DNA of 64,000 nucleotides. Origin: Micropepsaceae bacterium (GTDB taxonomy: Bacteria; Pseudomonadota; Alphaproteobacteria; Micropepsales; Micropepsaceae). This document shows, in pieces, positions 2,134 through 35,968 of the stretch; the stretch's first letter is position 1, and every line of letters begins with the position of its first letter. Where the stretch lies: NCBI GenBank assembly GCA_041477875.1, contig JBGOVA010000002.1:71-64070 (forward strand). Direction: 5' to 3'. A program made the position numbers and the translations under genes. The notes under the pieces were generated by a model. That model searched no databases. It had not been told where the DNA came from and worked only from the letters and a program-made list of their open reading frames with translations.

Positions 2134-2147
2134 TTGCGGTAGGTCAA
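2134..2147. promoter_or_regulatory. FixK/FNR-type box TTGCGGTAGGTCAA upstream of the phasin gene
   Basis: It fits TTG(A/C)-N6-(T/G)CAA. The box centre is about 76 nt upstream of the phasin ATG. A TAGAAT -10-like hexamer (reverse complement of 2106-2111) lies at the spacing expected for a class II promoter. Confidence 0.5.
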
Positions 2148-2178
2148 ACAATAGCGCAGCCGTGTGAACCTTCCGTTC

Positions 2179-2925
2179 TCAGTTCGTCTTCGGCGCAGCG
2201 GCGTCGATTCGGGCCATGAATTCGGCGAACTGGGCCTGCGACATTGTGCTCTCGCCAGCCACGCGGAGCTTGGCGGCCGCCGGCGGCAGGTCGAAAGCCA
2301 GCGACCGAATGTTGATCGTGACCCCCTTGAACTCCGGGGGCAGTTGCTGGGCCAAGTCGATGGCGTGGCGCTTGAAGATGTCGATGCCGACGATTGCATA
2401 AACGGCGTCGCTGACGCTCTGGTACGCGCCTTCAATGCGGCACGGCGGCGCGCTGGCCCCTTGCACGTCGATGGTGATGATCGAGCGCGCCGCGGACAGC
2501 GCAATTCTGGCGGAACAACTGACATCGGCCGGCAATTCCACGGGATATGAACCGGCACAAACGCGCTTCACGTAGTGAAAGCGAAGGTCGTATCTTACGG
2601 TCGTCGCACCGGTCAGCTTTGCGGCGGCGCCGAGAATCTTGACAACGTCGCCGCAGGGGATCGACCGGTCGAGCGCCTTGGCCGACAGTATCTTGATGTT
2701 CGCCAGAACCGATCTGACGTCCATTTCGGCGGTCAGCGCGACGCGATAAGTGCCGTTGGGGTTGGGCGTAGTTTGCCAGCTGACCGTCGAGGGAAGCTGC
2801 AATACGGCCGCGCCGAGCGTCGGGCGCGCAACAAAGTTCCGCGTGCCGTCAGCCCGCGTGCCGGGCGTAGCGACAGCTACCCATATGATGAGGGCGGCGA
2901 TCAAGCCTGCGCTATTCAATTTCAC
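2179..2925 (-). CDS. Hypothetical secreted protein
   Basis: This is ORF 2179..2964 with a probable GTG start at 2925 (VKLNSAGLIAALIIWVAVATPG, a signal peptide). Codon usage is high-GC. I recognise no family. Confidence 0.55.
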   Translation of the reverse strand: MKLNSAGLIAALIIWVAVATPGTRADGTRNFVARPTLGAAVLQLPSTVSWQTTPNPNGTYRVALTAEMDVRSVLANIKILSAKALDRSIPCGDVVKILGAAAKLTGATTVRYDLRFHYVKRVCAGSYPVELPADVSCSARIALSAARSIITIDVQGASAPPCRIEGAYQSVSDAVYAIVGIDIFKRHAIDLAQQLPPEFKGVTINIRSLAFDLPPAAAKLRVAGESTMSQAQFAEFMARIDAAAPKTN

Positions 2926-2939
2926 GTGCGGGGTTCTCT

Positions 2940-3067
2940 CAATTGGCCGACGTAATCGCAGCACACGATCGTGGTTTTTTCGCGGTGCGTCGGCGGGGCG
3001 TGTACGCAGGTGCGAGGTGGGTGTAATGCGATTAGCCGCGCCGGAGTTTGATCCAGCTCAGCGCTGA
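2940..3067 (+). repeat. Intergenic repeat element, copy 1 (about 128 nt)
   Basis: It is about 85-90% identical by eye to 5060..5189 in the same orientation. It contains the palindrome CACGATCGTG. It also has the inverted repeats TAATCGCA(2953)/TGCGATTA(3027) and GCCGACG/CGTCGGC. A FixK-like site, TTGATCCAGCTCAG, lies at 3048-3061. Confidence 0.8.
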
Positions 3068-3095
3068 CGCGCGAGGCGGTCCATGCGCCGCCCTC

Positions 3096-3926
3096 TCAAG
3101 ACGCCATTTTTGGATAGAGGCGTGCAGCGATCGTTATCAGGACCGCGCTCGCACCGGTCAGCACGGCCAGATCGAGCGCGATGCCATAGATGCTCTGCCC
3201 GCCGTTCAGCATCAATGCGCGCAGACCGTCGACCTCGTAGGTTAGCGGATTGGCCGAGGAGATCGTCTTGAGCCAATCCGGCATCAGGTCGAGCGGGTAG
3301 ATCGCGTTGCTGGCGAAGAAGATCGGCATCGTCAACAATTGACCGACGCCCATGAAGCGTTCGCGTGTTTTCACCAAGCACGCGATGATCAACGACAGCG
3401 TCGCGAATAGCGCGGCACCGAGTGCAACCAATACAATGACGCCTAACGTCGCAAGAAATTCGAACTTGATCCCGACGCCCATTGCAAGCGCTATCACGTA
3501 GATGATGGCGGCCTGCAAAACGCCGCGCACGCTTGCCGATACGGCTTTGCCGATCACGAGCGCCGAGCGCGGCGCGGGACTGACGAGATAGCGGTGCAAC
3601 ACGCCCAAGTCGCGCTCCCAAATCGCCGATATGCCGTAGAAGATGGACGCGAACAGCACGCTTTGCGCGAGGATGCCGGCCGACAGAAAATCCAAATATG
3701 GCAGCCCGTGACCCGACAGGCCGCGCGCCCGCGCCATGACGTTCCCAAACAGCACGAGCCACAGGATCGGTTGCACGGCGCGCGTGGCCAAATCGAACGG
3801 GTCATGCCGCAGCTTCTGAAGTTCGGCGGCGACGACGCCGAAGGTCTGTGTCCTGTAGTCGGCCACGCGGTCGACGAAGGTTCGTTCAGCCGTGCTCGCG
3901 GGCGGAGCGTCGTGCTTGCCTGACAT
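3096..3926 (-). CDS. ABC-2 type transporter permease
   Basis: The 276-aa ORF is multi-pass. It has typical ABC-2 (DrrB/NodJ-like) architecture and overlaps the upstream ATPase gene. Confidence 0.85.
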   Translation of the reverse strand: MSGKHDAPPASTAERTFVDRVADYRTQTFGVVAAELQKLRHDPFDLATRAVQPILWLVLFGNVMARARGLSGHGLPYLDFLSAGILAQSVLFASIFYGISAIWERDLGVLHRYLVSPAPRSALVIGKAVSASVRGVLQAAIIYVIALAMGVGIKFEFLATLGVIVLVALGAALFATLSLIIACLVKTRERFMGVGQLLTMPIFFASNAIYPLDLMPDWLKTISSANPLTYEVDGLRALMLNGGQSIYGIALDLAVLTGASAVLITIAARLYPKMAS

Positions 3927-4686
3927 TCCTGTAGCTTCCTTCCGACTCGATTTCGGCGCCGGTCAAATGCGCGAAGACGTCGTCGAGCGTCGCGCCCGGC
4001 CCCAATTCGTCCTTGAGCGCGCCCGGCGTTCCAACCTTCTCGATGCGGCCCTTGTGGATGAGCGCGATGCGGTCGCACAGCTCCTCCACTTCTTCCATGT
4101 AATGCGTGGTCACGAGCATCGTCGTGTTAAACTGCTCGCGCAGATCCTTCACGTGCTTCCACACCGTGTGGCGCGCGACCGGATCGAGCCCGACAGTCGG
4201 CTCGTCCATGAACAGGACGAGCGGGCGGTGAATCATGCTTTGTGCGATCTCGAGCCGCCGGATCATGCCGCCCGAATAGCGTTGGACCAGATGGTGGGCG
4301 ACGTCGGCGAGCCCCATGACGGCCAAGGCTTGCGCGATGCGCGGCTCGCGCTCGGCCTTCGGCACGCAATAGAGCCGGGCCGAAAGCAGGAGATTCTCGT
4401 ACCCCGTGAGCGAGCCGTCGGCGGACAGCTGTTGCGGCACGTAGCCGATATGGCGGCGTACGTCTGCTGCTTGCTTGACGATGTCGAAGCCGGCAACGAG
4501 CGCTCGCCCGGAGCTGGGCGGTAAAAGGGTCGTCAACATCTTGATGAGCGTGCTCTTGCCCGCACCGTTCGGGCCGATGAGGGCGAAGATCTCGCCGGCC
4601 TCGATCGTCAACGATGCCCGATCGACGGCGCGAAAGTCGCCGAAATCGCGGGTCAATTCGAAGGTCTCGACGATCGCAGATGTCAT
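3886..4686 (-). CDS. ABC transporter ATP-binding protein (DrrA-like)
   Basis: It has Walker A GPNGAGKST, signature YSGGMIRRL and Walker B LVLFMDEPT. A strong AAGGAGG SD lies upstream. Confidence 0.9.
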   Translation of the reverse strand: MTSAIVETFELTRDFGDFRAVDRASLTIEAGEIFALIGPNGAGKSTLIKMLTTLLPPSSGRALVAGFDIVKQAADVRRHIGYVPQQLSADGSLTGYENLLLSARLYCVPKAEREPRIAQALAVMGLADVAHHLVQRYSGGMIRRLEIAQSMIHRPLVLFMDEPTVGLDPVARHTVWKHVKDLREQFNTTMLVTTHYMEEVEELCDRIALIHKGRIEKVGTPGALKDELGPGATLDDVFAHLTGAEIESEGSYRNVRQARRSAREHG

Positions 4687-4723
4687 CGGAAGAACCTCCT
4701 TTGCCGGGTTTCCGAGGCGCGGG

Positions 4724-4737
4724 TTGACTTAGCGCAA
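4724..4737. promoter_or_regulatory. FixK/FNR-type box TTGACTTAGCGCAA
   Basis: It lies in the divergent gap between the ABC ATPase gene (start 4686) and the small CDS (start 4815). It fits TTGA-N6-GCAA. It is nearly identical to the boxes at 9703 and 30458. Confidence 0.5.
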
Positions 4738-4814
4738 GGTCTCCCGTCACGCCATTGCTAGGTTGTTTGGTCATGTGCCGACGCCGCTGCGGCCCGATCC
4801 TTGAGGAGCATCCG

Positions 4815-5051
4815 ATGCAAGATTTCAACAAACTGATCGAAGATCTCAAACGCACGCACGACGAAATCAGACTCAAGGCGCACCTTGGCACGAAGGACCT
4901 TCAGGACGAATGGTCGCATCTCGAAAAGCGTTGGCACGGCTTCGAAAGAAAGGCCGAACTCGAGCGCAGCGCAAAGGATGTCAGCAAGGCGCTGAACGCT
5001 TTGGGCTTGGAACTCAAGGCCGCGTTCGCGCGTGTGCGATCGGCGCTCTAA
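4815..5051 (+). CDS. Small helical hypothetical protein (78 aa)
   Basis: This uses the internal ATG of ORF 4755..5051 (MQDFNKLIEDLKRTHDEIRLKAHLG...). It is preceded by a GAGGAG SD. Confidence 0.5.
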   Translation: MQDFNKLIEDLKRTHDEIRLKAHLGTKDLQDEWSHLEKRWHGFERKAELERSAKDVSKALNALGLELKAAFARVRSAL

Positions 5052-5059
5052 GCCATGAG

Positions 5060-5189
5060 CAATTGGCTGACGTAATCGCGGCACACGATCGTGGTTACTT
5101 CGCGGTGTGTCGGCGGGGGGGACGCTCATACGTGCGAGGTGGATGTAATGCGATTACCCGCGCCGAAGTTTGATCTAGCTCAGCGCCGG
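5060..5189 (+). repeat. Intergenic repeat element, copy 2 (about 130 nt)
   Basis: It is a direct repeat of 2940..3067. It carries TTGATCTAGCTCAG at 5170-5183, about 95 nt upstream of the DUF3775 gene. Confidence 0.8.
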
Positions 5190-5272
5190 ACCAAGATCGC
5201 CGTGTGTCTATCGACGGCGAAACGGGGCGTTCCAGTGCGCGTCGTTTGGGCATGGGAACGGGAGCAGCGAAC

Positions 5273-5689
5273 ATGAATGTGACAATCTCGGTGCCGATCG
5301 AGACATTGGCCTACATCATCGAAAAGGCGCGCGAATTCGACGCCGAAGTCGAAGTCGACGATCCGCAATCAGGTTCCAACCCGGCAGATGACCGGGAGCT
5401 GGCAATCCTCCAGGATACGGCCGAGAATCCGACCGAAGACGAGCTGACCGAGGCCTTGCGCAGCATGAACGACGACGAATTGGCGGAACTGTTGGCGCTC
5501 GTTTGGGTCGGCCGCGGCGATTTCGACGAGGAAAGCTGGGACGAAGCTCTGACGAGCGCGCGTGCGGCGCGCGACAAGCGCATCCTTCCTTACCTCATGG
5601 GCACGCCGATGCTCGGCGACTTGGTGGCGGAGGGCCTTGCCGAGCTCGGTTACGCTGTGCCGCCGGTCGCGGAAGAGGCGGCGTCTTAA
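5273..5689 (+). CDS. DUF3775 domain-containing protein
   Basis: This uses the internal ATG (MNVTISVPIETLAYIIEKAREFD...), preceded by a GGGAG SD. The acidic protein matches my recollection of the DUF3775 family pattern. Confidence 0.75.
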   Translation: MNVTISVPIETLAYIIEKAREFDAEVEVDDPQSGSNPADDRELAILQDTAENPTEDELTEALRSMNDDELAELLALVWVGRGDFDEESWDEALTSARAARDKRILPYLMGTPMLGDLVAEGLAELGYAVPPVAEEAAS

Positions 5690-5690
5690 T

Positions 5691-6374
5691 ATGCGCGACC
5701 GTCCGACATACAAGGATCGGGAGGAGGCGGGGCGCCGCTTGGCGCCGCTCCTCTCCGCGTTTCGCGAAAGCGGTGCGATCGTATTCGCCTTGCCGCGTGG
5801 AGGCATACCCGTCGCCATCGAGGTTGCGCGTGCACTGTCCCTGCCGCTCGACCTCCTGTACGTGCGCAAGATCGCGGCGCCCCTGGAACCGGAGCTCGCC
5901 CTTGGCGCGATCGTGGACGGCGCCGACCCGGATATCGTTCTAAACGACGCTCTGGTGAGCCAGTTGGGCATATCGCGCGCTGTTCTGGAAGAGATCGGCG
6001 AACGCGAACTGCAAGAGATCAAACGGCGGAAGGAGCGGTACGGCAATGCGTTGACCACGCCATTGATGCCGACGGGCCGCCCTGCCATCATCGTCGATGA
6101 CGGACTGGCGACGGGTGCTACCGTGCGAGCAGCGGCGCAAGCCCTCCGGCGACGCGGCGCCACGCGGGTCATCGTTGCCGTCCCTGTCGCACCGCCCGAC
6201 GCGGTATCCGCGCTCGAAGAGGTAGGTGCTGAGGTCGTTTGTCCCCACGTGACGGAGCGCTTCATGGGCGTGGGGATGTTCTATCGCGATTTCCGTCAGC
6301 TCTCGGATGATACGGTGATCGCGCAGCTCGCCGCATTTCGGCGTGAATCGGACCGCGTGCACGAAGCTTCGTGA
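5691..6374 (+). CDS. Phosphoribosyltransferase family protein
   Basis: MRDRPTYKDREEAGRRLA... is followed by the PRPP-binding loop AIIVDDGLATGATV. The start codon is 1 nt after the preceding stop. Confidence 0.85.
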   Translation: MRDRPTYKDREEAGRRLAPLLSAFRESGAIVFALPRGGIPVAIEVARALSLPLDLLYVRKIAAPLEPELALGAIVDGADPDIVLNDALVSQLGISRAVLEEIGERELQEIKRRKERYGNALTTPLMPTGRPAIIVDDGLATGATVRAAAQALRRRGATRVIVAVPVAPPDAVSALEEVGAEVVCPHVTERFMGVGMFYRDFRQLSDDTVIAQLAAFRRESDRVHEAS

Positions 6375-6410
6375 GCTGTCTCTCGCTCACCCGTGCCAAG
6401 GAGGAGCACC

Positions 6411-6779
6411 ATGCAAGTGCCTGTTCAGATCGTCCTGAAGAAGGTGCCGCAACCGGCAGCCGCGCGGGCGGAAGTGCTTAAGGCCGCCGGCGTGCTGGAG
6501 CGATTTCACGATCGCATCACGTCGTGCCGGGTTGCCGTGACCAATCCCGATGCCCGCCATCGCCAAGGCGGGATTTTTGACGTGCATATCACGATGCGCG
6601 TGCCCGGCCACGGCGACATCGAAGTCACCAGGCGAGCGCAGGATCGCGCCGAGCGGGAGCACCTCGATGTGGCGTTGCGCAACGCGTTTGCGCAGGCGCG
6701 GCGTCAGCTGCAGGACGTCGCGCGCGAGAAGCGCGGCGATATCAAGGTACGTGCGCGACGTGCGCCGATCGACGGATAA
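6411..6779 (+). CDS. HPF/RaiA-family ribosome-associated (hibernation) protein
   Basis: MQVPVQIVLKKV... and RITSCRVAVT...GGIFDVHITMRVPG give the short HPF fold pattern. An AGGAGG SD lies upstream. Confidence 0.75.
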   Translation: MQVPVQIVLKKVPQPAAARAEVLKAAGVLERFHDRITSCRVAVTNPDARHRQGGIFDVHITMRVPGHGDIEVTRRAQDRAEREHLDVALRNAFAQARRQLQDVAREKRGDIKVRARRAPIDG

Positions 6780-6783
6780 CGCG

Positions 6784-7443
6784 ATGTGTTTTTCGGCCGA
6801 AGCGAGCTTCCTTACGGCCACGGTCACAGGCCTTGTCGGCGTCGCCACCATCACCAGAGCAAGCAACGCGCGCGAGCTTCCGTTGGCTGCGATACCGCTC
6901 CTTTTTGCGATCCAACAGGCGGCGGAGGGTGGGCTGTGGCTCACGCTCCCTGTCGCGCCGCAGGCCGGCCTCTCCTCCTTTCTGACGCACGTCTTTCTTG
7001 TCTTCGCACTGGCTTTCTGGCCGGTCTTCGCCCCGCTCGCGGCGTTTCTGGTCGAGCCCAGCGCGACCCGCCGCCGCGTCATGATGGTCTGTCTGCTGAT
7101 CGGGATCGTCGTGGCCGGATACTTTATCGGTTCCGTGCTCACGATCCCGCACATCGCCAGCATCAATGAAGGGCACATCGTCTACCGGACCGGCGCAAGC
7201 TCACCCTTTTCGGTCGGAGGGCTCTACCTCCTTGCGACGGGCGTCGCCCTCTTGATGTCATCGCACCGCGCGGTGTCGGTGACGGGTTGGATCGTGTTCC
7301 TGGGCTCGATTGCGTCCTACTATTCGTATTGGGAAGCATTCGTCTCGGTGTGGTGTTTCTTCGCCGCCGCGTCCAGTATCGTTCTCCTCGTTCATTTCGA
7401 ACGCGCGCGCGCCGGGCGGCAAGCCAAGGCGGCGGGCGCGTAA
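6784..7443 (+). CDS. Hypothetical multi-pass membrane protein
   Basis: This uses the internal ATG of ORF 6550..7443. There are about six hydrophobic segments. I recognise no family. Confidence 0.6.
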   Translation: MCFSAEASFLTATVTGLVGVATITRASNARELPLAAIPLLFAIQQAAEGGLWLTLPVAPQAGLSSFLTHVFLVFALAFWPVFAPLAAFLVEPSATRRRVMMVCLLIGIVVAGYFIGSVLTIPHIASINEGHIVYRTGASSPFSVGGLYLLATGVALLMSSHRAVSVTGWIVFLGSIASYYSYWEAFVSVWCFFAAASSIVLLVHFERARAGRQAKAAGA

Positions 7444-7445
7444 TC

Positions 7446-7459
7446 TTGAGGGAGATCAA
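7446..7459. promoter_or_regulatory. FNR/FixK-type box TTGAGGGAGATCAA
   Basis: It is a perfect TTGA-N6-TCAA. The centre is 63 nt upstream of the PH-domain gene ATG at 7516. Confidence 0.6.
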
Positions 7460-7515
7460 AGTATTCGGCGCGCGACGGCGTTGGATGGGACCCGCATTCT
7501 CACCGGGGCAGCCAA

Positions 7516-7977
7516 ATGAGCTACGTAAGTCAGACATCCGGCGCGGTCGAGTGCGTCCGCTTTCGTGCCCACTATCATTGGCTCTATTGGCTGGGCGGCA
7601 TCGTGTTGGCGACCGGACCGCTGCTGACATTTGCCGCAGGCCCGATCGACAGCTGGGCCGGTCTTGCCGTCCTGTGTGTAACGGTGGTCGGCGTCCCCTT
7701 CGGACTGGTGATTCTCGTTCGCGCATTCGCAACGGAGATAGCCGTCACGTCCGACCGTTTTATCAAGAAAGGCGGCCTGATTTCCTTTGAGTCCGAAGAT
7801 ATCAGCCTGGACAAGGTGGAAGAGATCAACCTCGAGGAGAGTATTCTCGGCGCACTCTTCGGCTACGGGACTCTGGTAGTTCACGGGAGCGGCACAGGAT
7901 CAATTAGAGTGGAGATGGTACAATCACCCGAACGGCTTCGGCGTGAGATCGAAAGTGCGCGCGAGGCGCTCCGGTGA
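7516..7977 (+). CDS. Membrane-anchored bacterial PH domain (bPH_2/YdbT-like) protein
   Basis: It has two N-terminal transmembrane (TM) helices. These are followed by ITSDRFIKKGGLISFESEDISLDKVEEINLEESILGALFGYGTLVV, which is typical of bPH_2. Confidence 0.7.
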   Translation: MSYVSQTSGAVECVRFRAHYHWLYWLGGIVLATGPLLTFAAGPIDSWAGLAVLCVTVVGVPFGLVILVRAFATEIAVTSDRFIKKGGLISFESEDISLDKVEEINLEESILGALFGYGTLVVHGSGTGSIRVEMVQSPERLRREIESAREALR

Positions 7978-8004
7978 CGGAAGCTCGTTTTGGGGAGAAT
8001 TCGC

Positions 8005-8640
8005 ATGTTCAAGTATGGCGGCGCGCGGTTGGTCGAGATCGCGACCGTCGTGGGCCTCGCATTGGCGATCACGGCGCAAATTGCATTTGCAGACAACGAT
8101 GCGGAGAGATTTGCGCAGGGCGTGATCGATCAGGGATTCGCGATTCTGCGCGACGACAGCGCAAGCGACAATGCAAGGCGGTCCCGGTTTCACGACTTCA
8201 TCTTGGGGCACGTGGAGGCGCGCAAGACCGCGCTCTTCACGCTTGGCGTCTATCGGCGCGGCGCACCGGATGCGGCGCTCGAGGCGTTTGTCGGCGCCTT
8301 CAGGGAATATTCGACGGCGATCTATGAGACGCATCTCGAAGACTACAAGAACGCGACCTTGCGCGTCAGCGGCTCGATCGAAAACAAGCCCGGCGACGTT
8401 ACGGTGAACACATTGGCCGACGATCCAAGCCTGCGCGAGCCCGTCCGCATTGCCTTTCGGCTGATGCGGTTGGGAAGCGACTACAAGATCGTCGACGTGC
8501 AGGCGGCGGGAATTTGGCTTTCGATCGAACAGCGCGATCAGTTCGCCTCGATGCTCGCGAAAAACAACGGCGACATTGCGGCGCTGACGTCGATGCTGAT
8601 CGAACGGACGGCACGAATTCGCGCCGGCGAAACATCGTGA
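8005..8640 (+). CDS. MlaC/Ttg2D-family phospholipid-binding periplasmic protein
   Basis: It has a signal peptide, then FILGHVEARKTALFTLGVYRR...YKIVDVQAAGIWLSIEQRDQF, which matches the Tol-tolerance Ttg2D pattern. Confidence 0.7.
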   Translation: MFKYGGARLVEIATVVGLALAITAQIAFADNDAERFAQGVIDQGFAILRDDSASDNARRSRFHDFILGHVEARKTALFTLGVYRRGAPDAALEAFVGAFREYSTAIYETHLEDYKNATLRVSGSIENKPGDVTVNTLADDPSLREPVRIAFRLMRLGSDYKIVDVQAAGIWLSIEQRDQFASMLAKNNGDIAALTSMLIERTARIRAGETS

Positions 8641-8647
8641 ACGCCGA

Positions 8648-9673: not shown

Positions 9674-9702
9674 CATCATGCGTCGATCGATCAGACGTCG
9701 AT

Positions 9703-9716
9703 TTGATCTAGCGCAA
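9703..9716. promoter_or_regulatory. FixK/FNR-type box TTGATCTAGCGCAA
   Basis: It lies in the gap between the TPR gene and the P-type ATPase gene. The predicted class II transcription start site (TSS) is near 9751. That implies the ATPase start codon is downstream of 9742, for example GTG at 9814. Confidence 0.5.
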
Positions 9717-28522: not shown

Positions 28523-28525
28523 CCC

Positions 28526-29728
28526 ATGTTCCGCGAGGCGTTCAAACTTGCCATCCGCACGATCAGGCGCAACGCGCTGCGCTCGTTCCTCACCGTGCTC
28601 GGCGTCGTCATCGGCGTCGGCGCGGTGATCGGCATGGTCACGACCGGTCAAGGCACGACGGCGCAAGTGACGGCGGACGTCGCCAAGCTCGGCACCAATC
28701 TCCTGATGGTGCGCTCCGGACGCGGCATGGGCCCGTTTGGGGGAGGGGCGAAGAGATTCAGCATCAAGGACGTCGATGCGGTCGAGGCACAGATCTCGGG
28801 CGTCAGGATCACCGGGCCGTCGAGTTCGCAGAACATGACCGCGATCTTCGGCAACGAGAACTACACGACCAGCGTCACAGGCACCGACAACCGCTTCTTC
28901 GACGCCCGCGAATGGAAGCTTGAGAAAGGGCGGCTGTTTCAAGAGGGCGAACTACGGGTCGGCGATTCGGTCTGCGTGATCGGCGCGACGACGCGCAACG
29001 AACTCTTCGGAAAAAGCGACCCGGTCGGTCAAATCATCAGGCTCAAGCAGATTTCCTGCAACGTGATCGGTCTTCTCGCCGCCAAGGGCGTCTCGACGTC
29101 CGGGCCCGATCAGGACGACCTGGTCGTGATGCCGTTACGCACCTTCCAGCGTCGCGTCTCCGGCAATCAGGACATCGAGATGATGTTCGTCTCCGTCAAG
29201 GAAGGGATTTCGACCGCGAAAGTGCAGCGCGACATCGAACGGCTGTTGCGCGAGCGGCGGCGCATTGCGCCGGGCGAGGAAGACGACTTCGGCGTGATGG
29301 ACACCAAGCAGCTCGCGTCCATGATGACGAGCGTCACCAGCATGCTCACCGGCCTCTTGAGTTCGGTCGCGGCAGTCAGCCTGCTGGTCGGCGGCATCGG
29401 CATCATGAACATCATGCTGGTGTCGGTGACCGAGCGCACGCGCGAGATCGGCATCCGCTTGGCGATCGGCGCACAGGCGCGCCAAGTGCTGCTGCAGTTC
29501 CTGGTCGAGGCTGTCGTGCTGTCGCTGTTCGGCGGCCTGGCGGGGATCGCGGCCGGGCTCATCTTCGCGGCCGTCGCCACCTCGATGCTCGGCGTGCCGT
29601 TCATCATCGACATTCCCACGATCGTCGTCGCCTTCGCGTTCTCGGCGATGGTGGGCATCGTGTTCGGCTATTTCCCGGCACAGCGCGCCTCGCGCCTCAA
29701 CCCGATCGAGGCGTTGCGCCACGAATAG
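28526..29728 (+). CDS. MacB-type ABC transporter permease (FtsX family)
   Basis: The architecture is TM1, a periplasmic domain, then three TM helices. REIGIRLAIGA is the FtsX signature. Confidence 0.9.
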   Translation: MFREAFKLAIRTIRRNALRSFLTVLGVVIGVGAVIGMVTTGQGTTAQVTADVAKLGTNLLMVRSGRGMGPFGGGAKRFSIKDVDAVEAQISGVRITGPSSSQNMTAIFGNENYTTSVTGTDNRFFDAREWKLEKGRLFQEGELRVGDSVCVIGATTRNELFGKSDPVGQIIRLKQISCNVIGLLAAKGVSTSGPDQDDLVVMPLRTFQRRVSGNQDIEMMFVSVKEGISTAKVQRDIERLLRERRRIAPGEEDDFGVMDTKQLASMMTSVTSMLTGLLSSVAAVSLLVGGIGIMNIMLVSVTERTREIGIRLAIGAQARQVLLQFLVEAVVLSLFGGLAGIAAGLIFAAVATSMLGVPFIIDIPTIVVAFAFSAMVGIVFGYFPAQRASRLNPIEALRHE

Positions 29729-29740
29729 GCGGCGCGCCGG

Positions 29741-30193
29741 CTAGGGAACAACCATCACGTTGCACGGCGCCAGGGTCACGAGCTTCTGCGATACGCTCCC
29801 CAAGAGCAGGCCCGCCAAGCTGCCGCGGCCGCGCTTGCCCACGACAATCGCGTCCGCGTTCCTTTGCTTCGAGACCTTAAGGATCGCTTCGGTCGGATCG
29901 CCGCTCTCGGTCTGAAGGTGAACGTCGGTCGCACCGGCGCGCGCTGCGCGCTTTCGGGCGCGAAACAAGACGTTCTGTGCGGTGATCTCGGCGACGTCCC
30001 CCTCAGCGACATGCTCGATCGTCTCGAATGCTTCCACCGTGTCGCGCGAAAGGCGGTCCTGCACCGTCAAGATCAGCAGACGGGCGCCGAGTGATTTCGC
30101 CAGTTGGGCGGCGGCATCAATCGCTCGATCACTCCCGGCCGACCCATCCGTTGCCACCAAAATCTGCCGCAGTGCACTTCTCGCCTCTTGCAT
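29741..30193 (-). CDS. Universal stress protein (single domain)
   Basis: This uses the internal ATG (MQEARSALRQILVATDGS...). The C-terminus is VVGKRGRGSLAGLLLGSVSQKLV. It overlaps the chaB stop by 1 nt. Confidence 0.85.
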   Translation of the reverse strand: MQEARSALRQILVATDGSAGSDRAIDAAAQLAKSLGARLLILTVQDRLSRDTVEAFETIEHVAEGDVAEITAQNVLFRARKRAARAGATDVHLQTESGDPTEAILKVSKQRNADAIVVGKRGRGSLAGLLLGSVSQKLVTLAPCNVMVVP

Positions 30194-30408
30194 CAGTCGG
30201 GCTCGCGTTCGATCCAGACGCCATCTTGCTTGACATAGCGCTTCTTCACAGCCGCCCAGGCCACGCGATGGGCGATCTCTTCGCGCCGGCCGCTGGCCTC
30301 GTACGAGTCGAAAGCGTTGTTGAACGCCGCGCGATAGATGTCTTGCGCGTGCGTCGGCAACACGTGGCGGATGCTCTCTGGCAGCGAGGCGTTTGACGCA
30401 TAAGGCAT
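30193..30408 (-). CDS. chaB: ChaB family protein
   Basis: SLPESIRHVLPTHAQDIYRAAFNNA...AHRVAWAAVKKRY is the ChaB pattern. Confidence 0.8.
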   Translation of the reverse strand: MPYASNASLPESIRHVLPTHAQDIYRAAFNNAFDSYEASGRREEIAHRVAWAAVKKRYVKQDGVWIEREPD

Positions 30409-30457
30409 AGCGGCACCTGCGAGGGTGCGAAGTATGAGCGCGCCTTCTTGCCGGTTC

Positions 30458-30471
30458 TTGATCTACCGCAA
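30458..30471. promoter_or_regulatory. FixK/FNR-type box TTGATCTACCGCAA
   Basis: The centre is about 56 nt upstream of the chaB ATG. CATACT (reverse complement of 30431-30436) is at -10 spacing. The coordinate may be off by 1 nt. Confidence 0.5.
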
Positions 30472-30530
30472 AACGGCGATCTCCTTCTCCAGGATATTGC
30501 CGCCATGCCCGGCAACGCCGCCGGCGACCG

Positions 30531-32033
30531 TCAGGCGATCGCGATCGCGCCTTCGTGCGCGGTGACATAGGTCATGGCGTACGCCAACTCGCCGGGCGAC
30601 TCCGCGTGCACCGTGAACAGCGGCTGGCCGGCGTCGACTTGCTCGCCCAAGCGCGCGTGAAGGTCGAGACCGGCGGCCGGCGCGCGCGGCGCACCCGCGA
30701 GCTTTGCGATGCGCGAAAGCCTTCGATTGTCCATTCGCGCGATGCGTCCGGTCCCAGGTGCGACGATCACCTGCCTGTGGGCCGCCGTCCGCGGCTCGCG
30801 CATTCCGCCTTGGGCATCGCAAATCGCCTGAAACTTCCGCCATGCGCGCCCGTCGTCGAGCAGTGCCCTTGCCTGTCGGGCGCCGAGTGCCGGTCCTGCC
30901 TTGCCGCCGAGCTCCAAGATATGACCGGCCAGCGAGACGGCGCGCGCAGCCAAGTCTTGAGGTGCGCCCGGCTCGCCGCGGAGGACGGCCAGCAGGTCGC
31001 GCGCCTCGAGCGCCGGCCCGATGCCGCGACCGACCGGCTGGGCGCCGTCCGTCTCAACGGTCTTGACGGCAATTCCCAGCGCCGCGCCAACGTCGATCAG
31101 GCGTTTCGCCAAAGCCTGTGCGCCGGCCGAGTTGCGCATCTTGGCGGTCGGGCCCACAGGGATATCGATCAAAGCGTGCGTCGAACCCGCGGCAACCTTC
31201 TTCGAAAGCACCGAGGCCGTGAGTTGGCCGTCGCTGTCGAAGTCGAGCGGGCGCTCGACATGGATCAAGATGTCGTCCGCCGGGCTTATTCCCATCGCGC
31301 CGCCCCAAACGACGCAGCCGCCCTCGCGCTCGACCACACGGCGCATCGCGGGAAGACTCAGCATCACGGGCGCGATCGTCTCCATGGTGTCCGCCGTGCC
31401 GGCGGGCGAGGTGATCGCGCGCGAGGAGGTTTTGGGCATCACGAGGCCCGCAGCCGCCACGATCGCCACAATGATGGGCGTCGTGCGATTGCCGGGCAGG
31501 CCGCCGATGCAGTGCTTGTCGACAATCGGATGCGCGGGCCACGTCAAGCGCGAGCCCGCCGACACCATCGCGTGCGTCAGACCGATGGTTTCCTCGAGCG
31601 ACAAATGATCGCCGGCGCAGGCCGTGACGAACGAAGCCATTTCGAGGCCCGAGTATCGGCCGGCGACCACATCCGCGATGATCTCCTGAAAATCGTCCGG
31701 CGCCAGCGTGCGGCCGTAAATCTTGCCGCGTACCTTCGAGAACGACTCGACGGGGTCGGGATGCGAGACATAAACAAGGCTCCCCGCGCGCGCGCCGAGG
31801 GCGACCCAGGCGGCGTCCGAGAGCCCAGCCTCGTGCTTGCCCAGAAGGTTCGAATTCACGACGTTGAGCGTCGCGATGACCTCGCGCCCGTCCAGCGACA
31901 GTCTCACGCGGGCAAGCGCGGCAAACCCCTCCGAGCGGCACACCTCGCAATCGGCGTGCATATAGACGACGGGCTCTTGATAGGTGTCGATGCCGATGCG
32001 CGTGACGCGCAAGCCGTGCGGCGATGCACTCAT
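30531..32033 (-). CDS. Thymidine phosphorylase family protein (putative nucleoside/AMP phosphorylase type)
   Basis: MSASPHGLRVTRIGIDTYQEPVV..., DKHCIGGLPGNRTT and TSSRAITSPAGTADTME are present. The ATG at 32033 was chosen to match the family N-terminus. Confidence 0.9.
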   Translation of the reverse strand: MSASPHGLRVTRIGIDTYQEPVVYMHADCEVCRSEGFAALARVRLSLDGREVIATLNVVNSNLLGKHEAGLSDAAWVALGARAGSLVYVSHPDPVESFSKVRGKIYGRTLAPDDFQEIIADVVAGRYSGLEMASFVTACAGDHLSLEETIGLTHAMVSAGSRLTWPAHPIVDKHCIGGLPGNRTTPIIVAIVAAAGLVMPKTSSRAITSPAGTADTMETIAPVMLSLPAMRRVVEREGGCVVWGGAMGISPADDILIHVERPLDFDSDGQLTASVLSKKVAAGSTHALIDIPVGPTAKMRNSAGAQALAKRLIDVGAALGIAVKTVETDGAQPVGRGIGPALEARDLLAVLRGEPGAPQDLAARAVSLAGHILELGGKAGPALGARQARALLDDGRAWRKFQAICDAQGGMREPRTAAHRQVIVAPGTGRIARMDNRRLSRIAKLAGAPRAPAAGLDLHARLGEQVDAGQPLFTVHAESPGELAYAMTYVTAHEGAIAIA

Positions 32034-32099
32034 GTTTGTCGTCCTCGGTTGACCTGGATCCAAGCGCGCGCGGCGACGAGATCCAAGCGAAGCGTCACA

Positions 32100-32744
32100 T
32101 TAGGGCGGCGCGCGCTTGAAACCGGTGATCATCGCGAGAAGGAGGTTTTCCTTGTGCGCGATGCCGGCGAGGGCGACGCCCGCGACGTGGAAGGCGATCA
32201 GGATCAGCGTCAAATTGGCGAAGAGCTCGTGGATTTCCTGCATGGCGCTTTCTTCACGGCGACGCGGAGCTAAGGTTCGTTCACTCTCGGCAGATGGCGC
32301 GATGTCCTCCGATTGGGACGCGGCCGCCCGTTTCTCGAGAAACAAAGCGAACGGACCTTCGCCATGCGAAAGCGCAAGCTCGGCCATGCCGGTCACAACC
32401 GTGCCGGTCAGCATGAACAGCAGTGCGAAGACCATCATTGCGCCCGCCGGCGAGTGGCCGATGTAGCGGGGCGCGCGCATGCGCACGAGGTCGCGGAGGT
32501 AGGCGAGCGCTTTGAATGGGCTGAAGAGAAAATCGGAAAAGCGCGCGTGCTCCGTCCCCACGAAACCCCAGACGAGGCGAGCGAGGATGTAGGCCGTGAC
32601 CGCATAGCCCGCCCATTCGTGCATTTCGAGCGCGTCGTCCTCGGTCAAATAGGCAACGGCGAACGCGATCACCAGTATCCAGTGGCCCATGCGGACGAGG
32701 CGGTCCCATACCTGGACGGTCGCGACGGGGTTGTCGTTTGGCAT
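32100..32744 (-). CDS. Cytochrome b/b6-domain (b561/Ni-Fe hydrogenase b-type) membrane protein
   Basis: VWDRLVRMGHWILV carries a haem-ligand His pattern. There are four TM helices and a second His pair in IAFHVAGVALAGIAH. Confidence 0.8.
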   Translation of the reverse strand: MPNDNPVATVQVWDRLVRMGHWILVIAFAVAYLTEDDALEMHEWAGYAVTAYILARLVWGFVGTEHARFSDFLFSPFKALAYLRDLVRMRAPRYIGHSPAGAMMVFALLFMLTGTVVTGMAELALSHGEGPFALFLEKRAAASQSEDIAPSAESERTLAPRRREESAMQEIHELFANLTLILIAFHVAGVALAGIAHKENLLLAMITGFKRAPP

Positions 32745-32771
32745 AGGCGGTTTTTCCCGTGCTGGACCGAC

Positions 32772-33959
32772 TCACGTAACATCGCGGCCCTCCGGCACAA
32801 TGTAAACCACATGACCGAATTCGTCTTTGACGGGGGTGAGCGAAATGTCGATCCGGCGCACGTCGCCCTCGGCGCGATGCAGTTCCGCCGTGTAGCGCAC
32901 GGTTTCGCCGCGTGCGGCCTCCGCGATCGCGCTTTTGAGCCGCTGGCGCGCGCTGTCGTCGGGCGCAAGGTCGCTGCCGGCCCAGGGCAGGTCCCATAAC
33001 GGCAAGCCGATGAGCTGCGAGTGACCTTCGGTCATCAGGCGGCCGGCACGATTGATCTCGAGCACCGTGCCGTCCGGCGCGATGAGGCCTATCGCCTCGA
33101 ACGCGTGTTCGAAGATGGCGCGAAAGCGGCGCTCGCTTTCCTTCAGCTTTTGTTCCTGGCGTTTGCGCAGCGTGACGTCGCGCACGTGCGCGGTGAAGGT
33201 GAGCGCGCCGCCGACCGTCACCTTGGTGATCGCCACTTCCACCGGGAATTCCTCGCCGTCCTTGCGCAGGCCCACGATGTGGCCGCGCTCGTTCATCTGG
33301 CGCGACGCCTGTTTGCCGGCGCCGAAGCCGGTGACGTCTTCGCGATGGCGAAAGCGATAGCGTTCGGGCATCAGCAGCGACAGCGGACGCCCCAAGACCT
33401 CCTCGGCGCGATAGCCGAACATGTGCTCGGCCTTTAGATTGAAGAAGGTGATCGTCTGCGCGGCGTCAGCCGAGATGATGCCGTCTTCGGCGACTTGCAG
33501 AATGCGCGAAGCCTTGAGGTGGGCTTCCTTGAACGAGGCTTGCTCCCGGCGGCGCGCGGTGTTGTCGCGAAAGGTGATGAAATAACGCCGCACTCCGTCG
33601 ACCTGGCGTTCGACGACGCGCACGTCGACGGGCATTTGCGCGCCCGCCTTGGTTTGCGCGATCAGGTCGAGAAAGCGCGACTGGGTCTCATCGGATTCGT
33701 GCGCCCAGCGTTCGAGCCACTTCATGGCGTCGGCGCGGCGGTCGGGCTGCTGGGGCACCAGCATCGCGATGTTGCGGCCGACGACGTCGGCTTGCTTGTA
33801 ACCCAGGAGCTTTTCGGACGCCGGATTGAAATAGGTGATCGTGCCATCGGGCGCCGCGACGATGATCGCCTCCGGCACGCCCTCCACAAGCGCGCGGAAG
33901 AAAGCGGGCGAGGCCTGATCCTTCGCCGCTGTCTGCGGGTCGCGCGTCGGTGTCGTCAT
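32772..33959 (-). CDS. Triple-PAS-domain sensor protein without output domain
   Basis: This uses the internal ATG (MTTPTRDPQ...), giving 395 aa. There are three PAS repeats: PDGTITYFNPASEKLLGY, ITFFNLKAEHMFGY and PDGTVLEINRAG. No kinase, GGDEF or HTH follows. Confidence 0.85.
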   Translation of the reverse strand: MTTPTRDPQTAAKDQASPAFFRALVEGVPEAIIVAAPDGTITYFNPASEKLLGYKQADVVGRNIAMLVPQQPDRRADAMKWLERWAHESDETQSRFLDLIAQTKAGAQMPVDVRVVERQVDGVRRYFITFRDNTARRREQASFKEAHLKASRILQVAEDGIISADAAQTITFFNLKAEHMFGYRAEEVLGRPLSLLMPERYRFRHREDVTGFGAGKQASRQMNERGHIVGLRKDGEEFPVEVAITKVTVGGALTFTAHVRDVTLRKRQEQKLKESERRFRAIFEHAFEAIGLIAPDGTVLEINRAGRLMTEGHSQLIGLPLWDLPWAGSDLAPDDSARQRLKSAIAEAARGETVRYTAELHRAEGDVRRIDISLTPVKDEFGHVVYIVPEGRDVT

Positions 33960-33971
33960 GGCCGTCTCACG

Positions 33972-34011
33972 AAAAATGAACCGAGCGCCCGCGGGGGGAA
34001 ATCGCGGGCGC
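33972..34011 (-). terminator. Rho-independent terminator after the diiron oxygenase gene
   Basis: The minus-strand hairpin is GCGCCCGCG-loop-CGCGGGCGC, followed by TTCATTTTTCG. Confidence 0.65.
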
Positions 34012-34030
34012 TGCGGTCCGGTCGAAGCCG

Positions 34031-35143
34031 TTACTCTGCCGCGGCTTCGAGGCTCGGCGCGCCGCCTTCCATCTGGTGAAGGATGCGCATGTCTTCGGAG
34101 ATCTGGATGCCGGCCGCCTCGTACTTCTTGCGCACGCGCGGCGTGATCAGGCCGACGCGCGCAATGGCGGGCAACATCAGATCGTGCAACGAATGGATTT
34201 GGCCCGGTGGAAGCTCTGTCAGGATTCCCATGTCGGCCGCTTCGCTCAGGCCCTTGAAGAAATCCTCCGGATCGATCTGGGAGTTCTTCAGCACTTCCAT
34301 GAAGCCCGGGTCGGCGCGGCTGGCCAAGGTCTGACCGCCGCCGACCTGTGTGCCCTGGACGATCAGATAGATCGCATTGAAGGCGAAGTCGGCGAGTTCC
34401 TCGCGCGAGGCTTCGTCGAGCTTCTTGATCACCGGGCCCAGGAAGACGTGACCGAACGAGACGTGGCGCGATTCGTCGCGCATGACGTTGAAGGTGATCG
34501 CCTTGAGAAGCGGGCAGTTCGTGGCGTGATACATGTTGTTGAAGGCGCCGAGGGCGAGGCCTTCGACGATCATGTTCATGCCGATCATCACTTTTTCGTA
34601 GCGATCGGATTTCAATGTCGCGTCGATCAGCGCCTTGAGCCACGGCGTCATCGGGTAGACCATGGCGATCTTGTCGCAATATTTGGCGTAGACCTCGACG
34701 TGGCGCGCTTCGTCCATCGTCTGCGTCGCGGCGTAAAGCTTCGCGGTCGTGTCGGGCACCGAATGCGTGACGCAGGCCGCCGTCATCAGCGCGCCTTGCT
34801 CGCCGTGCAGGAATTGCGAGAGCAACTGCGCGGTCGAATGCGCGGTGAACGTCTCGCGCTGCGATTTCGACAACTTCGCGAAGAACGGCATTTTGTGGTA
34901 CACGGACGAACGGTCCGCGATCAGCGGGTTCGACGGATCGACCTTCGTGTCCCACGGCAGAAGCTCGTCGGAATCCCATTGATTCTGCTTCGCGCGTTTG
35001 TAGAGATCCTCGACCTTGCCTTTGCCGAACAGGTAGTCGAACGACCACGCGATATCCATCGGGTTGCGATAGAGACCGTCGGGCGTCATGGTCACTTGCC
35101 ATGCGCCTTTTTTCACAACTTTGCCGACCGCTTGCGCCGCCAT
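34031..35143 (-). CDS. Ferritin-like diiron oxygenase (AurF/PF11583-like), substrate unknown
   Basis: The four-helix diiron ligand pattern is present: HGEQGAL, DEARHVE (ExxH), IVEGLALG and RDESRHVS (ExxH). Confidence 0.75.
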   Translation of the reverse strand: MAAQAVGKVVKKGAWQVTMTPDGLYRNPMDIAWSFDYLFGKGKVEDLYKRAKQNQWDSDELLPWDTKVDPSNPLIADRSSVYHKMPFFAKLSKSQRETFTAHSTAQLLSQFLHGEQGALMTAACVTHSVPDTTAKLYAATQTMDEARHVEVYAKYCDKIAMVYPMTPWLKALIDATLKSDRYEKVMIGMNMIVEGLALGAFNNMYHATNCPLLKAITFNVMRDESRHVSFGHVFLGPVIKKLDEASREELADFAFNAIYLIVQGTQVGGGQTLASRADPGFMEVLKNSQIDPEDFFKGLSEAADMGILTELPPGQIHSLHDLMLPAIARVGLITPRVRKKYEAAGIQISEDMRILHQMEGGAPSLEAAAE

Positions 35144-35214
35144 TTCCGTCCTCCGTGTCCGCCAGACCTATGTGGCTTGGTCATGAACACTGACGTAGGC
35201 GTCAGCGTTGCGAT

Positions 35215-35228
35215 TTGATTCAGATCAA
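35215..35228. promoter_or_regulatory. Consensus FNR/FixK anaerobox TTGATTCAGATCAA
   Basis: It is a perfect TTGAT-N4-ATCAA palindrome. It lies 72-85 nt upstream of the diiron oxygenase ATG (35143), inside the ferredoxin/oxygenase gap. Confidence 0.7.
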
Positions 35229-35270
35229 AATTGCCGCGTGGCGTTTCGGCGCGAATGAGAATGAGTGTCG

Positions 35271-35588
35271 TCAGTACTGGCGCGCCGGCGTGCGCACGAC
35301 GAGGCCTTCGAGCGCGGACGAGACTTTGATCTGGCACGAGAGGCGGCTGTTCTCCTTCACGTCGAAGGCGAAGTCGAGCATGTCGCGTTCGAGCTCGTTC
35401 ATCGGCGGCAGTTTTGCCATCCAGCCGTTCTCGACGTAGACGTGGCACGTGGCGCAGGCGCAGGCACCGCCGCAATCGCCGTCGATGCCGGGGACGGTAT
35501 AGCGCACCGCGCCTTCCATCACCGACAGGCCGTCGGGCACGTCCACGACATGCTCGGTGCCCGAGTGCTCGATGTACTTGATCTTGGC
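35271..35588 (-). CDS. [2Fe-2S] ferredoxin (adrenodoxin/putidaredoxin type)
   Basis: [14 protein letters not shown]... and the Cys pattern [12 protein letters not shown]...C are present. Confidence 0.85.
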
Positions 35589-35670
35589 CATGCGTGGTCG
35601 TGCTCGCCCCACGCTTTCGCCTGAAGCCCGAGTAATGCTGTCCGGCTGTTGCTATGTGTTGTGCGGCAAG

Positions 35671-35968
35671 GGCTCATTGATATGGGTCAAGCGGCGTGTG
35701 CGCTGATCGACGTCTGACGCCTCGAAAGGTCTCGAGACCAGGCCACATGGTTGACGGGCAGCAGCTGCGGACTGACCGCAATGGCGACCCCGCGCAGGAT
35801 CGCCCGCGAGCCGCGCTGCGCGACGAAAAGAGGGAAAGGCTCAGCGAGAAGAAGGCGATTGCGTTGAGGCTCGCCCAACTTTCCATGATCAAGCGGCCCG
35901 TGCTCATCGCGGGTGAGCGCTTGGCTTCAAGTGGGAGCAATATGGCGCGGTTTTCGGCGCGGGATTGA
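35671..35968 (+). pseudogene. Degenerate ArsC/YffB-family reductase remnant
   Basis: The C-terminal 45 aa ([32 protein letters not shown]) look like the ArsC/Spx-family tail. The N-terminal part is recognisable only across two frames (MGQAAC...ATWL) and has an in-frame stop. Confidence 0.35.
35677..35690. promoter_or_regulatory. FNR/FixK-type box TTGATATGGGTCAA
   Basis: It is a perfect TTGA-N6-TCAA, about 95 nt upstream of the ferredoxin ATG. It also overlaps the first codons of the ArsC-like remnant, so its function is uncertain. Confidence 0.4.

Follow-up and report, generated by a model that had tools for sequence, protein, structure and literature searches.

We analysed a 64,000-nt stretch of DNA from a Micropepsaceae bacterium (GenBank assembly GCA_041477875.1, contig JBGOVA010000002.1, positions 71 to 64,070 of the forward strand; hereafter the window), whose first 36 kb hold a cluster of palindromic boxes of the TTGA-N6-TCAA type between genes of varied stress, storage, transport and redox function. 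The clustering of these boxes before 36 kb is real, and we put at about 80% the probability that they are class II FNR/FixK-type promoter elements that define a low-oxygen/stress regulon island. The assignment to the FNR/FixK motif class, made in an earlier note on this DNA, is supported by the box sequences themselves, by their intergenic placement, by their spacing to −10 elements, by their conservation in other contigs and by a regulatory cassette found next to a related island. The low-oxygen label derives from gene content and from homologous systems; for this organism, binding by a regulator, the identity of that regulator, the response to oxygen and the reach of the operons are likewise inferred.

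In the mechanism that we propose, a dimeric activator from the CRP/FNR family, with the specificity of the FNR/FixK/Dnr class, would use 16 dyads as its operators. Most of them would serve as class II elements centred near −41.5, where the bound regulator would bring sigma-70 RNA polymerase to a weak promoter with a −10 but no −35 element. About 19 predicted transcription units, with some 34 of the 38 genes in the first 36 kb, would be placed under one signal, most likely low oxygen, and the activator would most likely be a FixK-type protein whose production depends on a heme-PAS FixL/FixJ pair located elsewhere in the genome.

Clustering and intergenic placement of the boxes

The window contains exactly seven perfect TTGA-N6-TCAA sites, all of them present where the earlier note had listed them and all within the first 36 kb (Table 1). 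By comparison, 100 dinucleotide-preserving shuffles of the window held a mean of 0.46 and a maximum of 2 such sites, and none reached seven. The relaxed, FixK2-style pattern TTGM-N6-KCAA matched 15 times (3.6 expected), and the scan recovered the four relaxed sites previously reported at 2134, 4724, 9703 and 30458 together with an intergenic one that had been overlooked, TTGATTTGGCGCAA at 20729, which is the second box in the divergent gap between a dienelactone-hydrolase-like (DLH-like) gene and a gene for a tandem universal stress protein (USP). Three further relaxed matches, at 21988 and 58068 (both within a coding sequence, CDS) and at 53579, are probably due to chance. With up to one mismatch to the perfect dyad allowed, 36 sites are found in the whole window; those in intergenic DNA before 36 kb number 16, made up of 7 perfect, 5 relaxed and 4 other one-mismatch sites. 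When the half-sites of these 16 are symmetrised, the counts are 30/32 for T1, 30/32 for T2, 32/32 for G3 and 27/32 for A4.

Placement was assessed on a gene map built from codon statistics, Pfam and NCBIfam, with gene starts checked by exact look-up of the called proteins. All seven perfect sites fall in intergenic DNA, which makes up 10.4% of the window (P about 1e-7). Counted with up to one mismatch, sites reach 5.8 per kb between the genes of the first 36 kb (16 in 2,768 nt), whereas the CDSs of that half have 0.30 per kb and the intergenic gaps of the second half 0.51 per kb; within the window the sites lie in promoter regions and are not evenly spread over coding and non-coding DNA. The distance from box centre to start codon ranges from 41.5 to 131.5 nt, except at 32049 (22.5 nt). 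No flanking similarity is shared among the 14 sites other than 3048 and 5170.

One earlier figure needs revision. The expectation of 0.2 perfect sites in 64 kb, which would imply a roughly 35-fold enrichment, is exceeded by the shuffles and far more so by real DNA, with 2.3–2.6 perfect sites for every 64 kb in about 1 Mb of unrelated loci. Measured against real genomes, the boxes are thus enriched several-fold, or roughly 5-fold, and not ~35-fold. These loci came from a scan of genome contigs with the Glu/Leu/Phe/Val-type (ELFV) dehydrogenase of the island, which returned 73 loci, none of them above 75% identity and hence too distant for direct footprinting.

Table 1. Boxes, repeat copies and signalling genes of the island (positions in the window; strands in the context column are those of the genes)
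Feature	Position	Strand	Context	Details
Island	1..35612		~38 genes in ~19 predicted transcription units (Pfam, NCBIfam)	Left end runs off the window
Relaxed box TTGCGGTAGGTCAA	2134..2147		Upstream of phasin-PhaC (minus)	TAGAAT 23 nt after box; centre to ATG 2064, 76.5 nt
Repeat copy 1	2940..3064	+	125-nt direct repeat	Ends in one-mismatch box 3048
One-mismatch box TTGATCCAGCTCAG	3048..3061		Upstream of 248-aa hypothetical (2179-2925, minus)	Within repeat copy 1
Relaxed box TTGACTTAGCGCAA	4724..4737		Between ABC-2 exporter operon (minus) and small CDS (plus)	
Repeat copy 2	5060..5186	+	125-nt direct repeat	Ends in one-mismatch box 5170
One-mismatch box TTGATCTAGCTCAG	5170..5183		Upstream of DUF3775-phosphoribosyltransferase-DUF6629 (plus)	Within repeat copy 2; centre to ATG 5246, 69.5 nt (start 5246 not confirmed by exact look-up)
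Perfect box	7446..7459		Upstream of bPH_2-MlaC (plus)	Centre to ATG 7516, 63.5 nt
Relaxed box TTGATCTAGCGCAA	9703..9716		Between TPR gene (minus) and type II P-type cation ATPase (plus, start 9841)	Centre to start, 131.5 nt
One-mismatch box	19896..19909		Upstream of Host_attach/baeRF12 + ABC-FtsX-HlyD (19820 to 15005, minus)	TATCAA 23 nt after box
Perfect box	20680..20693		Upstream of DLH-like hydrolase (minus)	
Relaxed box TTGATTTGGCGCAA	20729..20742		Upstream of tandem-USP + CMAS (plus)	TAGCGT 23 nt after box; starts 66 nt before start codon
Perfect box	23077..23090		Upstream of RcnB-like secreted protein (plus)	TATTGA 22 nt after box
Perfect box	25381..25394		Between ELFV amino-acid dehydrogenase (minus) and receiver-only gene (plus)	Centre to ATG 25429, 41.5 nt
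Receiver-only FixJ-like protein (FixT-like candidate)	25429..25800	+	123 aa	Pfam Response_reg only
Perfect box	26475..26488		Between 199-aa hypothetical (minus) and MacA-MacB (plus)	TAAAAT 23 nt after box; ATG 26523
Relaxed box TTGATCTACCGCAA	30458..30471		Upstream of ChaB-USP (minus)	Centre to start, 56.5 nt
Doubtful one-mismatch site	32049..32062		Near start of thymidine/AMP-phosphorylase-like gene	22.5 nt from start; no phased −10
Triple-PAS protein	32772..33959	-	Three PAS domains	No kinase domain
Perfect box	35215..35228		Upstream of diiron oxygenase (minus)	Centre to ATG, 78.5 nt
Perfect box	35677..35690		Upstream of 2Fe-2S ferredoxin (minus); right-hand island edge	TAGCAA 23 nt after box

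Promoter geometry, conservation and possible rearrangement

To describe the spacing between boxes and −10 elements, each box was oriented towards its flanking gene or genes (both orientations being used for divergent gaps), and dinucleotides were counted at every offset after the box. The dinucleotide TA occurs at offsets 21–24 in 11 of the 20 oriented cases, six of them at offset 23, against a background TA frequency of 0.026 in the box-downstream segments; the probability of at least six TA at one given offset is 8.6e-6, or 3e-4 after correction for 37 offsets. The phased hexamers include TAGAAT (phasin), TAAAAT (MacA), TAGCGT (tandem-USP), TATCAA (Host_attach), TAGGTT (small CDS), TATTTT (receiver) and TAGCAA (ferredoxin). 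At the divergent box 4724 the phased TAGGTT lies on the plus side (small CDS) only; on the other side the ABC ATPase start is 44.5 nt distant and its Shine-Dalgarno sequence falls in the −10 zone. A −10 hexamer that begins 22–23 nt after a 14-bp box places the box centre at about −41.5, as in the class II promoters of FNR and FixK2. Taken together, the phased −10 elements, the box placement and the conservation described below suggest working promoter elements.

This geometry has a consequence at two of the perfect boxes, where the ATGs of MacA (26475–26525) and of the receiver-only gene (25381–25431) coincide with the predicted +1, at 41.5 nt from the centre of the box and 35 nt beyond it. 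They follow TAAAAT and TATTTT, respectively, by 7 nt, and neither is preceded by a Shine-Dalgarno sequence. In a close relative, locus L095 of the contigs compared, the MacA box spacing is kept, with a TAGAAT hexamer and different intervening sequence. On these sequence grounds, that is, an ATG at the predicted +1, the lack of a Shine-Dalgarno sequence and the spacing of MacA kept in L095, the MacA and receiver mRNAs may possibly be leaderless.

Conservation was examined most broadly for the tandem-USP promoter, for which a metagenome scan gave 14 loci, 10 of them with at least 120 nt of upstream DNA (36–81% identity). A box with at most one mismatch starts 62–70 nt before the ATG in 8 of these 10 and at −84 in a ninth. 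Counting this last case and locus L074, the island of the closest available relative, in which the box stands at −66 exactly as in the window, the tandem-USP box is conserved in 10 loci besides the window; as read from the sequences, a hexamer that begins with TA stands at offset 22–23 behind most of these boxes. L074 carries CMAS, tandem-USP, DLH-like and Host_attach genes and a thymidine/AMP-phosphorylase-like (TP-like) gene whose protein is 81% identical to that of the window, and its USP/DLH divergent gap has two boxes as the window does, with 32 nt between them versus 35 nt in the window and the rest of the gap diverged.

Other promoters of the island are matched in further contigs. The box of a ChaB relative in L085 is centred 55.5 nt from the start (56.5 nt in the window), a bPH_2 relative in the same locus has a perfect box upstream, and Host_attach relatives in L084–L087 adjoin boxes. 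In L096 boxes stand upstream of relatives of both the 248-aa hypothetical (84% identical) and the 199-aa hypothetical, and relatives of the receiver-only gene in L074 and L096 have a perfect box just upstream. L095 has a box identical to that at 20680 upstream of DLH and another upstream of MacA. More distant TP-like relatives (67–68% identical, in L077 and L078) stand in other contexts, near copper or phosphoketolase genes, and a scan of L077 for boxes found none. In these distant genomes the TP/AMP-phosphorylase-like gene forms a recurring three-gene unit with genes for a beta-CASP protein of the metallo-beta-lactamase (MBL) fold and a PRPP-synthetase-like protein, and in L078 genes for phosphoketolase and acetate kinase are found within a few kilobases of the unit; the TP-like gene of the window is separated from its unit partners.

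A comparable box-dense stress island exists in a tractable organism, the cultured Hoeflea sp. TYP-13 (L035, NZ_JBFRBB010000001.1:473086-494171), in which 7 perfect and 12 relaxed boxes occur in 21 kb. They surround genes for FtsH, a Lon-like protease, an acyl-CoA synthetase, an ELFV dehydrogenase, BON, a tandem-USP, GroEL, a flavodoxin, CBS and a P-type ATPase.

Two features of the island bear on how box-bearing segments move. The two copies of the 125-nt direct repeat (Table 1) are ~92% identical, have sharp ends and bracket the module of the ABC-2 exporter and the small CDS. As the open reading frames adjoining the copies (2575–2955 and 4767–5051) are unrelated, the duplication comprises a non-coding segment only, and it probably arose by copying of a bidirectional promoter/5′-untranslated segment when the 2-kb module inserted. 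In L095 (1823–1986, compared with 20680–26488 of the window) the DLH box, an identical 14-mer, is followed by a 23-aa 5′ remnant of the ELFV dehydrogenase gene and then by the MacA promoter, without the ~5.7 kb that the window has between the DLH box and MacA. This fusion suggests module loss or shuffling between box-bearing promoters and, along with the duplication that brackets the ABC-2 module, points to box segments as possible shuffling breakpoints. A box-driven structured small RNA or riboswitch within the repeat was also considered and was dropped, since Rfam gave no match in the window at gathering thresholds and none at E≤1 across the repeat copies, and the folds of both strands of both copies were no better than those of shuffles (z −0.1 to −0.7).

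Candidate regulators and signalling proteins

The claim of the earlier note that the window holds no regulator gene is correct for the CRP/FNR family, but two signalling proteins, the receiver-only and the triple-PAS protein, had escaped it. Searches of the window by tblastn with E. coli FNR and CRP gave nothing convincing, the best being a CRP match of 31 aa within a gene for an ABC ATPase (E=0.024), and the FixK-like protein of L074 found no match at E≤1e-3; the window contains neither fixLJ nor fixK.

A likely input is indicated by L074, where island-family genes adjoin a cassette that encodes FixL (with the heme-PAS motif ...RAEHDGHLARY...IIGIGR...), FixJ, a receiver-only protein and a 231-aa CRP-family protein. 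The last of these has no N-terminal cysteine cluster, and its best match among solved structures is B. japonicum FixK2 (4I2O, E=4.5e-26), followed at a distance by FNR (7e-15) and Dnr (2.2e-8). Because of this cassette in a relative, FixLJ–FixK is the most likely input for the island of the window. If the family-level reading is granted, the balance leans, though not heavily, towards a FixK-type regulator without an Fe-S cluster, under a heme-PAS FixL/FixJ pair elsewhere in the genome.

Both signalling proteins of the island resemble parts of that pathway. The receiver-only protein has the FixJ receiver as its best solved-structure match (5XSO, E=1.4e-16) and is homologous to the receiver encoded between fixJ and fixK in L074; its closest relative, in L096, does not adjoin fixLJ, so that the link to fixLJ comes from L074. 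In Caulobacter crescentus, the single-domain receiver FixT is co-induced with the microaerobic regulon and blocks the autophosphorylation of FixL (Stein et al. 2020, PMC7078487). Like FixT, the window protein consists of a receiver alone; unlike FixT, to which it is likened by description, it has no 4-Cys Fe-S motif, only a C-x-C pair. Given the perfect box in front of its gene, its expression would be expected to rise with that of the regulon, as happens for fixT, and by analogy it is a plausible inhibitor that would feed back negatively on FixL. The second PAS domain of the triple-PAS protein finds the FixL heme domain as its best solved-structure match (1D06, E=1.5e-15), with the proximal His aligned, and two positions that we take to be Arg206 and Arg220 of BjFixL are not conserved. 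Full-length relatives of 376–396 aa exist, which indicates that the triple-PAS form is a real architecture and not a truncated kinase.

Several observations weigh against the reading of the boxes as FixK-controlled class II promoters and have to be set beside its support. About 9 of the 20 oriented cases have no phased −10 (ABC-2 ATPase, DUF3775, bPH_2, P-ATPase, TPR, DLH, ELFV, TP-like and diiron), and the orientations for the −10 counts were picked with the gene map known. Four one-mismatch sites had been added in the earlier note (3048, 5170, 19896 and 32049), and all exist; those at 3048 and 5170 are not independent, being two copies of one duplicated segment, and 32049 is doubtful, as it lies too near the gene start for class II activation. 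None of the hallmark targets (fixNOQP/ccoNOQP, fixGHIS, hemN) occurs in the window; they may lie elsewhere in the genome. L074 belongs to another organism, and its island is differently arranged. Finally, FNR, FixK and Dnr have virtually identical target sites in alphaproteobacteria, with overlapping regulons (PMC2908626); with no regulator on the contig, the boxes fit FixK, an Fe-S FNR (FnrN/AadR/FnrL) and Dnr alike.

This shared specificity makes an FNR-type regulator that senses oxygen directly through an Fe-S cluster (FnrN/FnrL/AadR), acting through the same architecture or on sites used by both types, the chief alternative, which we consider possible and clearly less probable than FixK. 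The predicted core FNR regulon includes USP genes, and Hoeflea phototrophica, a relative of the organism with the box-dense locus L035, has been reported with FNR-group regulators only (PMC2908626). However, the island of the closest available relative adjoins fixLJ and a FixK-type protein without the Cys cluster, five sites of the window have the half-degenerate form TTG(A/C)...(T/G)CAA typical of FixK2 boxes, and the FixJ-like, FixT-like receiver of the island makes sense only with FixL.

A nitric-oxide-responsive regulator of the Dnr/NnrR type, which would turn the island into a nitrosative-stress or denitrification regulon, appears very improbable. Several half-sites do read GCGCAA, which resembles NnrR boxes, but no nir, nor, nos, nar or nnrS gene was found in the island by Pfam and NCBIfam annotation. 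Although Dnr has the same target sequence (PMC2908626), the gene content fits microoxic FixK2 targets and sets of the lxa type (see below), and the L074 regulator is far nearer to FixK2 (E=4.5e-26) than to Dnr (E=2.2e-8). Chance, a compositional effect or the copying of one promoter segment without shared regulatory function is next to negligible as an explanation, for although 2 of the 16 sites are repeat copies and real genomes exceed shuffles in such dyads (2.3–2.6 per 64 kb), no shuffle in 100 reached seven, all seven perfect sites are intergenic (P about 1e-7), the other 14 sites have no flanking similarity, the −10 elements are phased, and box positions are kept in contigs whose surrounding sequence has diverged.

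The FixK-type reading can be extended to a self-tuning island, in which two box-controlled proteins, the triple-PAS protein that has no kinase but a FixL-like PAS domain (which may bind heme) and the FixJ-like receiver that has no output domain, would act as decoys or feedback modulators of FixL–FixJ signalling. Joined with leaderless class II transcripts for MacA and the receiver and with module shuffling at box-bearing promoter segments, this makes a composite proposal that we offer as speculative and, taken whole, unlikely.

Gene content, related regulons and surroundings

The genes of the island span several functions. Storage is represented by PhaC and phasin. There are also a bacterial PH-domain protein (bPH_2) with MlaC, a TPR protein and a second copy of cyclopropane-fatty-acid synthase. 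The stress genes are two USP genes (one of them the tandem-USP), Host_attach/baeRF12 and ChaB, and nucleotide salvage is covered by the thymidine/AMP-phosphorylase-like enzyme and a phosphoribosyltransferase (with DUF3775 and DUF6629). Transport comprises the type II P-type cation ATPase and three ABC or MacAB-type exporters (ABC-2, ABC-FtsX-HlyD and MacA-MacB), and redox and other metabolism the ELFV dehydrogenase, an AurF/R2-like diiron protein, the 2Fe-2S ferredoxin and cytochrome b561. The remaining genes encode the DLH-like, RcnB-like, receiver-only and triple-PAS proteins, the small CDS, and the 248-aa and 199-aa proteins, for which Pfam and NCBIfam gave no family match. The genes for the triple-PAS protein, cytochrome b561 and the TP-like enzyme probably share a transcript with the diiron oxygenase (35143 to 30531, minus), to judge by their common strand and the little space between them.

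The only box-free unit, at 12392–14998, is a sulfide or sulfite detoxification module of the BigR/Blh type, with genes for an MBL-fold dioxygenase (Blh-like), an ArsR-type repressor (BigR-like), rhodanese-YgaP and TauE, whose NCBIfam matches are below the curated cut-offs. Having no FNR/FixK box, it presumably has its own regulation.

Comparison with described systems shows the island to be the same kind of object as the Bradyrhizobium FixK2 sets and the Burkholderia lxa locus, in a poorly studied lineage. The proteome induced by microoxia in Bradyrhizobium diazoefficiens includes host attachment proteins (bll5315, bll4645), USPs (blr2761, bll4644, bll6069), phaC2 (bll6073), CBS proteins and Mla/MCE transporters; several of these are listed as FixK2 targets, and some of their genes lie together on the chromosome (PMC6515984). 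Genes for FixL, FixJ, HlyD-family proteins and ABC transporters belong to the core FixK regulon as predicted (PMC2908626). The FixLJ–FixK2 regulon of this species and the FixK regulon of Rhodopseudomonas palustris have the same box form as the window, TTG(A/C)-N6-(T/G)CAA, and the FixK2 targets overlap the window at family level (PhaC, phasin, USP, host attachment, HlyD/ABC and Mla-type) and are clustered in part, for example at bll6060-blr6074 and bll4644-blr4659. In contrast, the organism of the window is a Micropepsaceae-like metagenome-assembled genome (MAG) and not a member of the Bradyrhizobiaceae, its site density is high (~16 sites and ~19 transcription units in 36 kb), and its TP/AMP-phosphorylase-like, phosphoribosyltransferase, diiron oxygenase/ferredoxin, triple-PAS and RcnB-like genes are absent from the FixK2 and FixK lists compared.

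The lxa locus of Burkholderia cenocepacia J2315 is a 50-gene cluster induced by low oxygen, in which a 4-bp inverted repeat, TGA-N6-TCA, occurs in intergenic DNA at 17 points (Sass et al. 2013, PMC3721108). It encodes six USPs, polyhydroxyalkanoate (PHA) synthesis, cation and other transporters, nucleotide metabolism, electron transfer and regulators. Control of an Anr/FNR-like kind has been proposed for the locus, which the bacterium needs in order to persist without oxygen (PMC3721108). The window is similarly a contiguous multi-operon locus, with 16 motifs, two USP genes, phasin/PhaC, exporters, a P-type ATPase, a TP-like enzyme and a phosphoribosyltransferase. The lxa locus differs in being betaproteobacterial and in holding its own candidate regulators, and both its induction and a deletion phenotype have been measured, whereas the window is known from sequence alone. 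Any likeness to the DosR dormancy regulon of M. tuberculosis, which is driven by a NarL/LuxR-type regulator through a different DNA motif, would be one of functional convergence only. That regulon is a USP-rich hypoxia set with a P-type cation ATPase (CtpF) and phosphoribosyltransferase/hydrolase proteins (in part after the discussion in PMC3721108).

These comparisons do not overturn current understanding, and specialists in rhizobial or Burkholderia oxygen regulation would have expected such an island. They bring the order Micropepsales, which has been little studied, into the range of "hypoxic persistence" islands under FixK/FNR control, and add a promoter map, two truncated FixL/FixJ-like proteins and hints of module shuffling at box segments. 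The recurring set of USP, Host_attach/baeRF12, ChaB, TP-like enzyme with phosphoribosyltransferase, P-type ATPase, exporter and PHA genes hints at a conserved toolkit for survival at low oxygen that distant bacteria have in common, and island members of unknown function gain a testable physiological context. The promoter-level map (16 sites, ~19 transcription units) could allow oxygen-dependent expression to be predicted from metagenomes.

The second half of the window carries housekeeping genes, among them those for BamB, Der, PurF, RadA, DnaB, Alr and ribosomal proteins L9, S18 and S6. The nearest named relatives of the DnaB helicase, 77–86% identical, are annotated as Micropepsaceae (Alphaproteobacteria, order Micropepsales), and the gene order DnaB-Alr-MlaE-MlaF is common to the window and a Micropepsaceae MAG. 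A mobile genomic-island origin was set aside, as there are no tRNA genes, the Pfam and NCBIfam annotation of the island includes no integrase-like domain, and the G+C content is even (0.60–0.67).

A few further features of the window were noted in passing. The two paralogues of cyclopropane-fatty-acyl-phospholipid synthase, at 21739–23004 (plus) and 58053–59324 (minus), are 71–74% identical as DNA; the first lies in the island, 3′ of the box-controlled tandem-USP, and the second among the housekeeping genes. Two adjoining small genes at 49084–49639 (minus), also in the housekeeping half, resemble on visual inspection a toxin of the MazF/PemK type and an antitoxin of the AbrB/MazE type. Finally, three ribosomal proteins carry unusual ends: S18 (60181–60609, minus) has a Gly/Arg-rich N-terminal extension of ~70 aa encoded by tandem repeats (60398–60580), L9 (59455–60162) a long Lys/Ala-rich C-terminal tail and S6 (60606–61070) a charged C-terminal tail.

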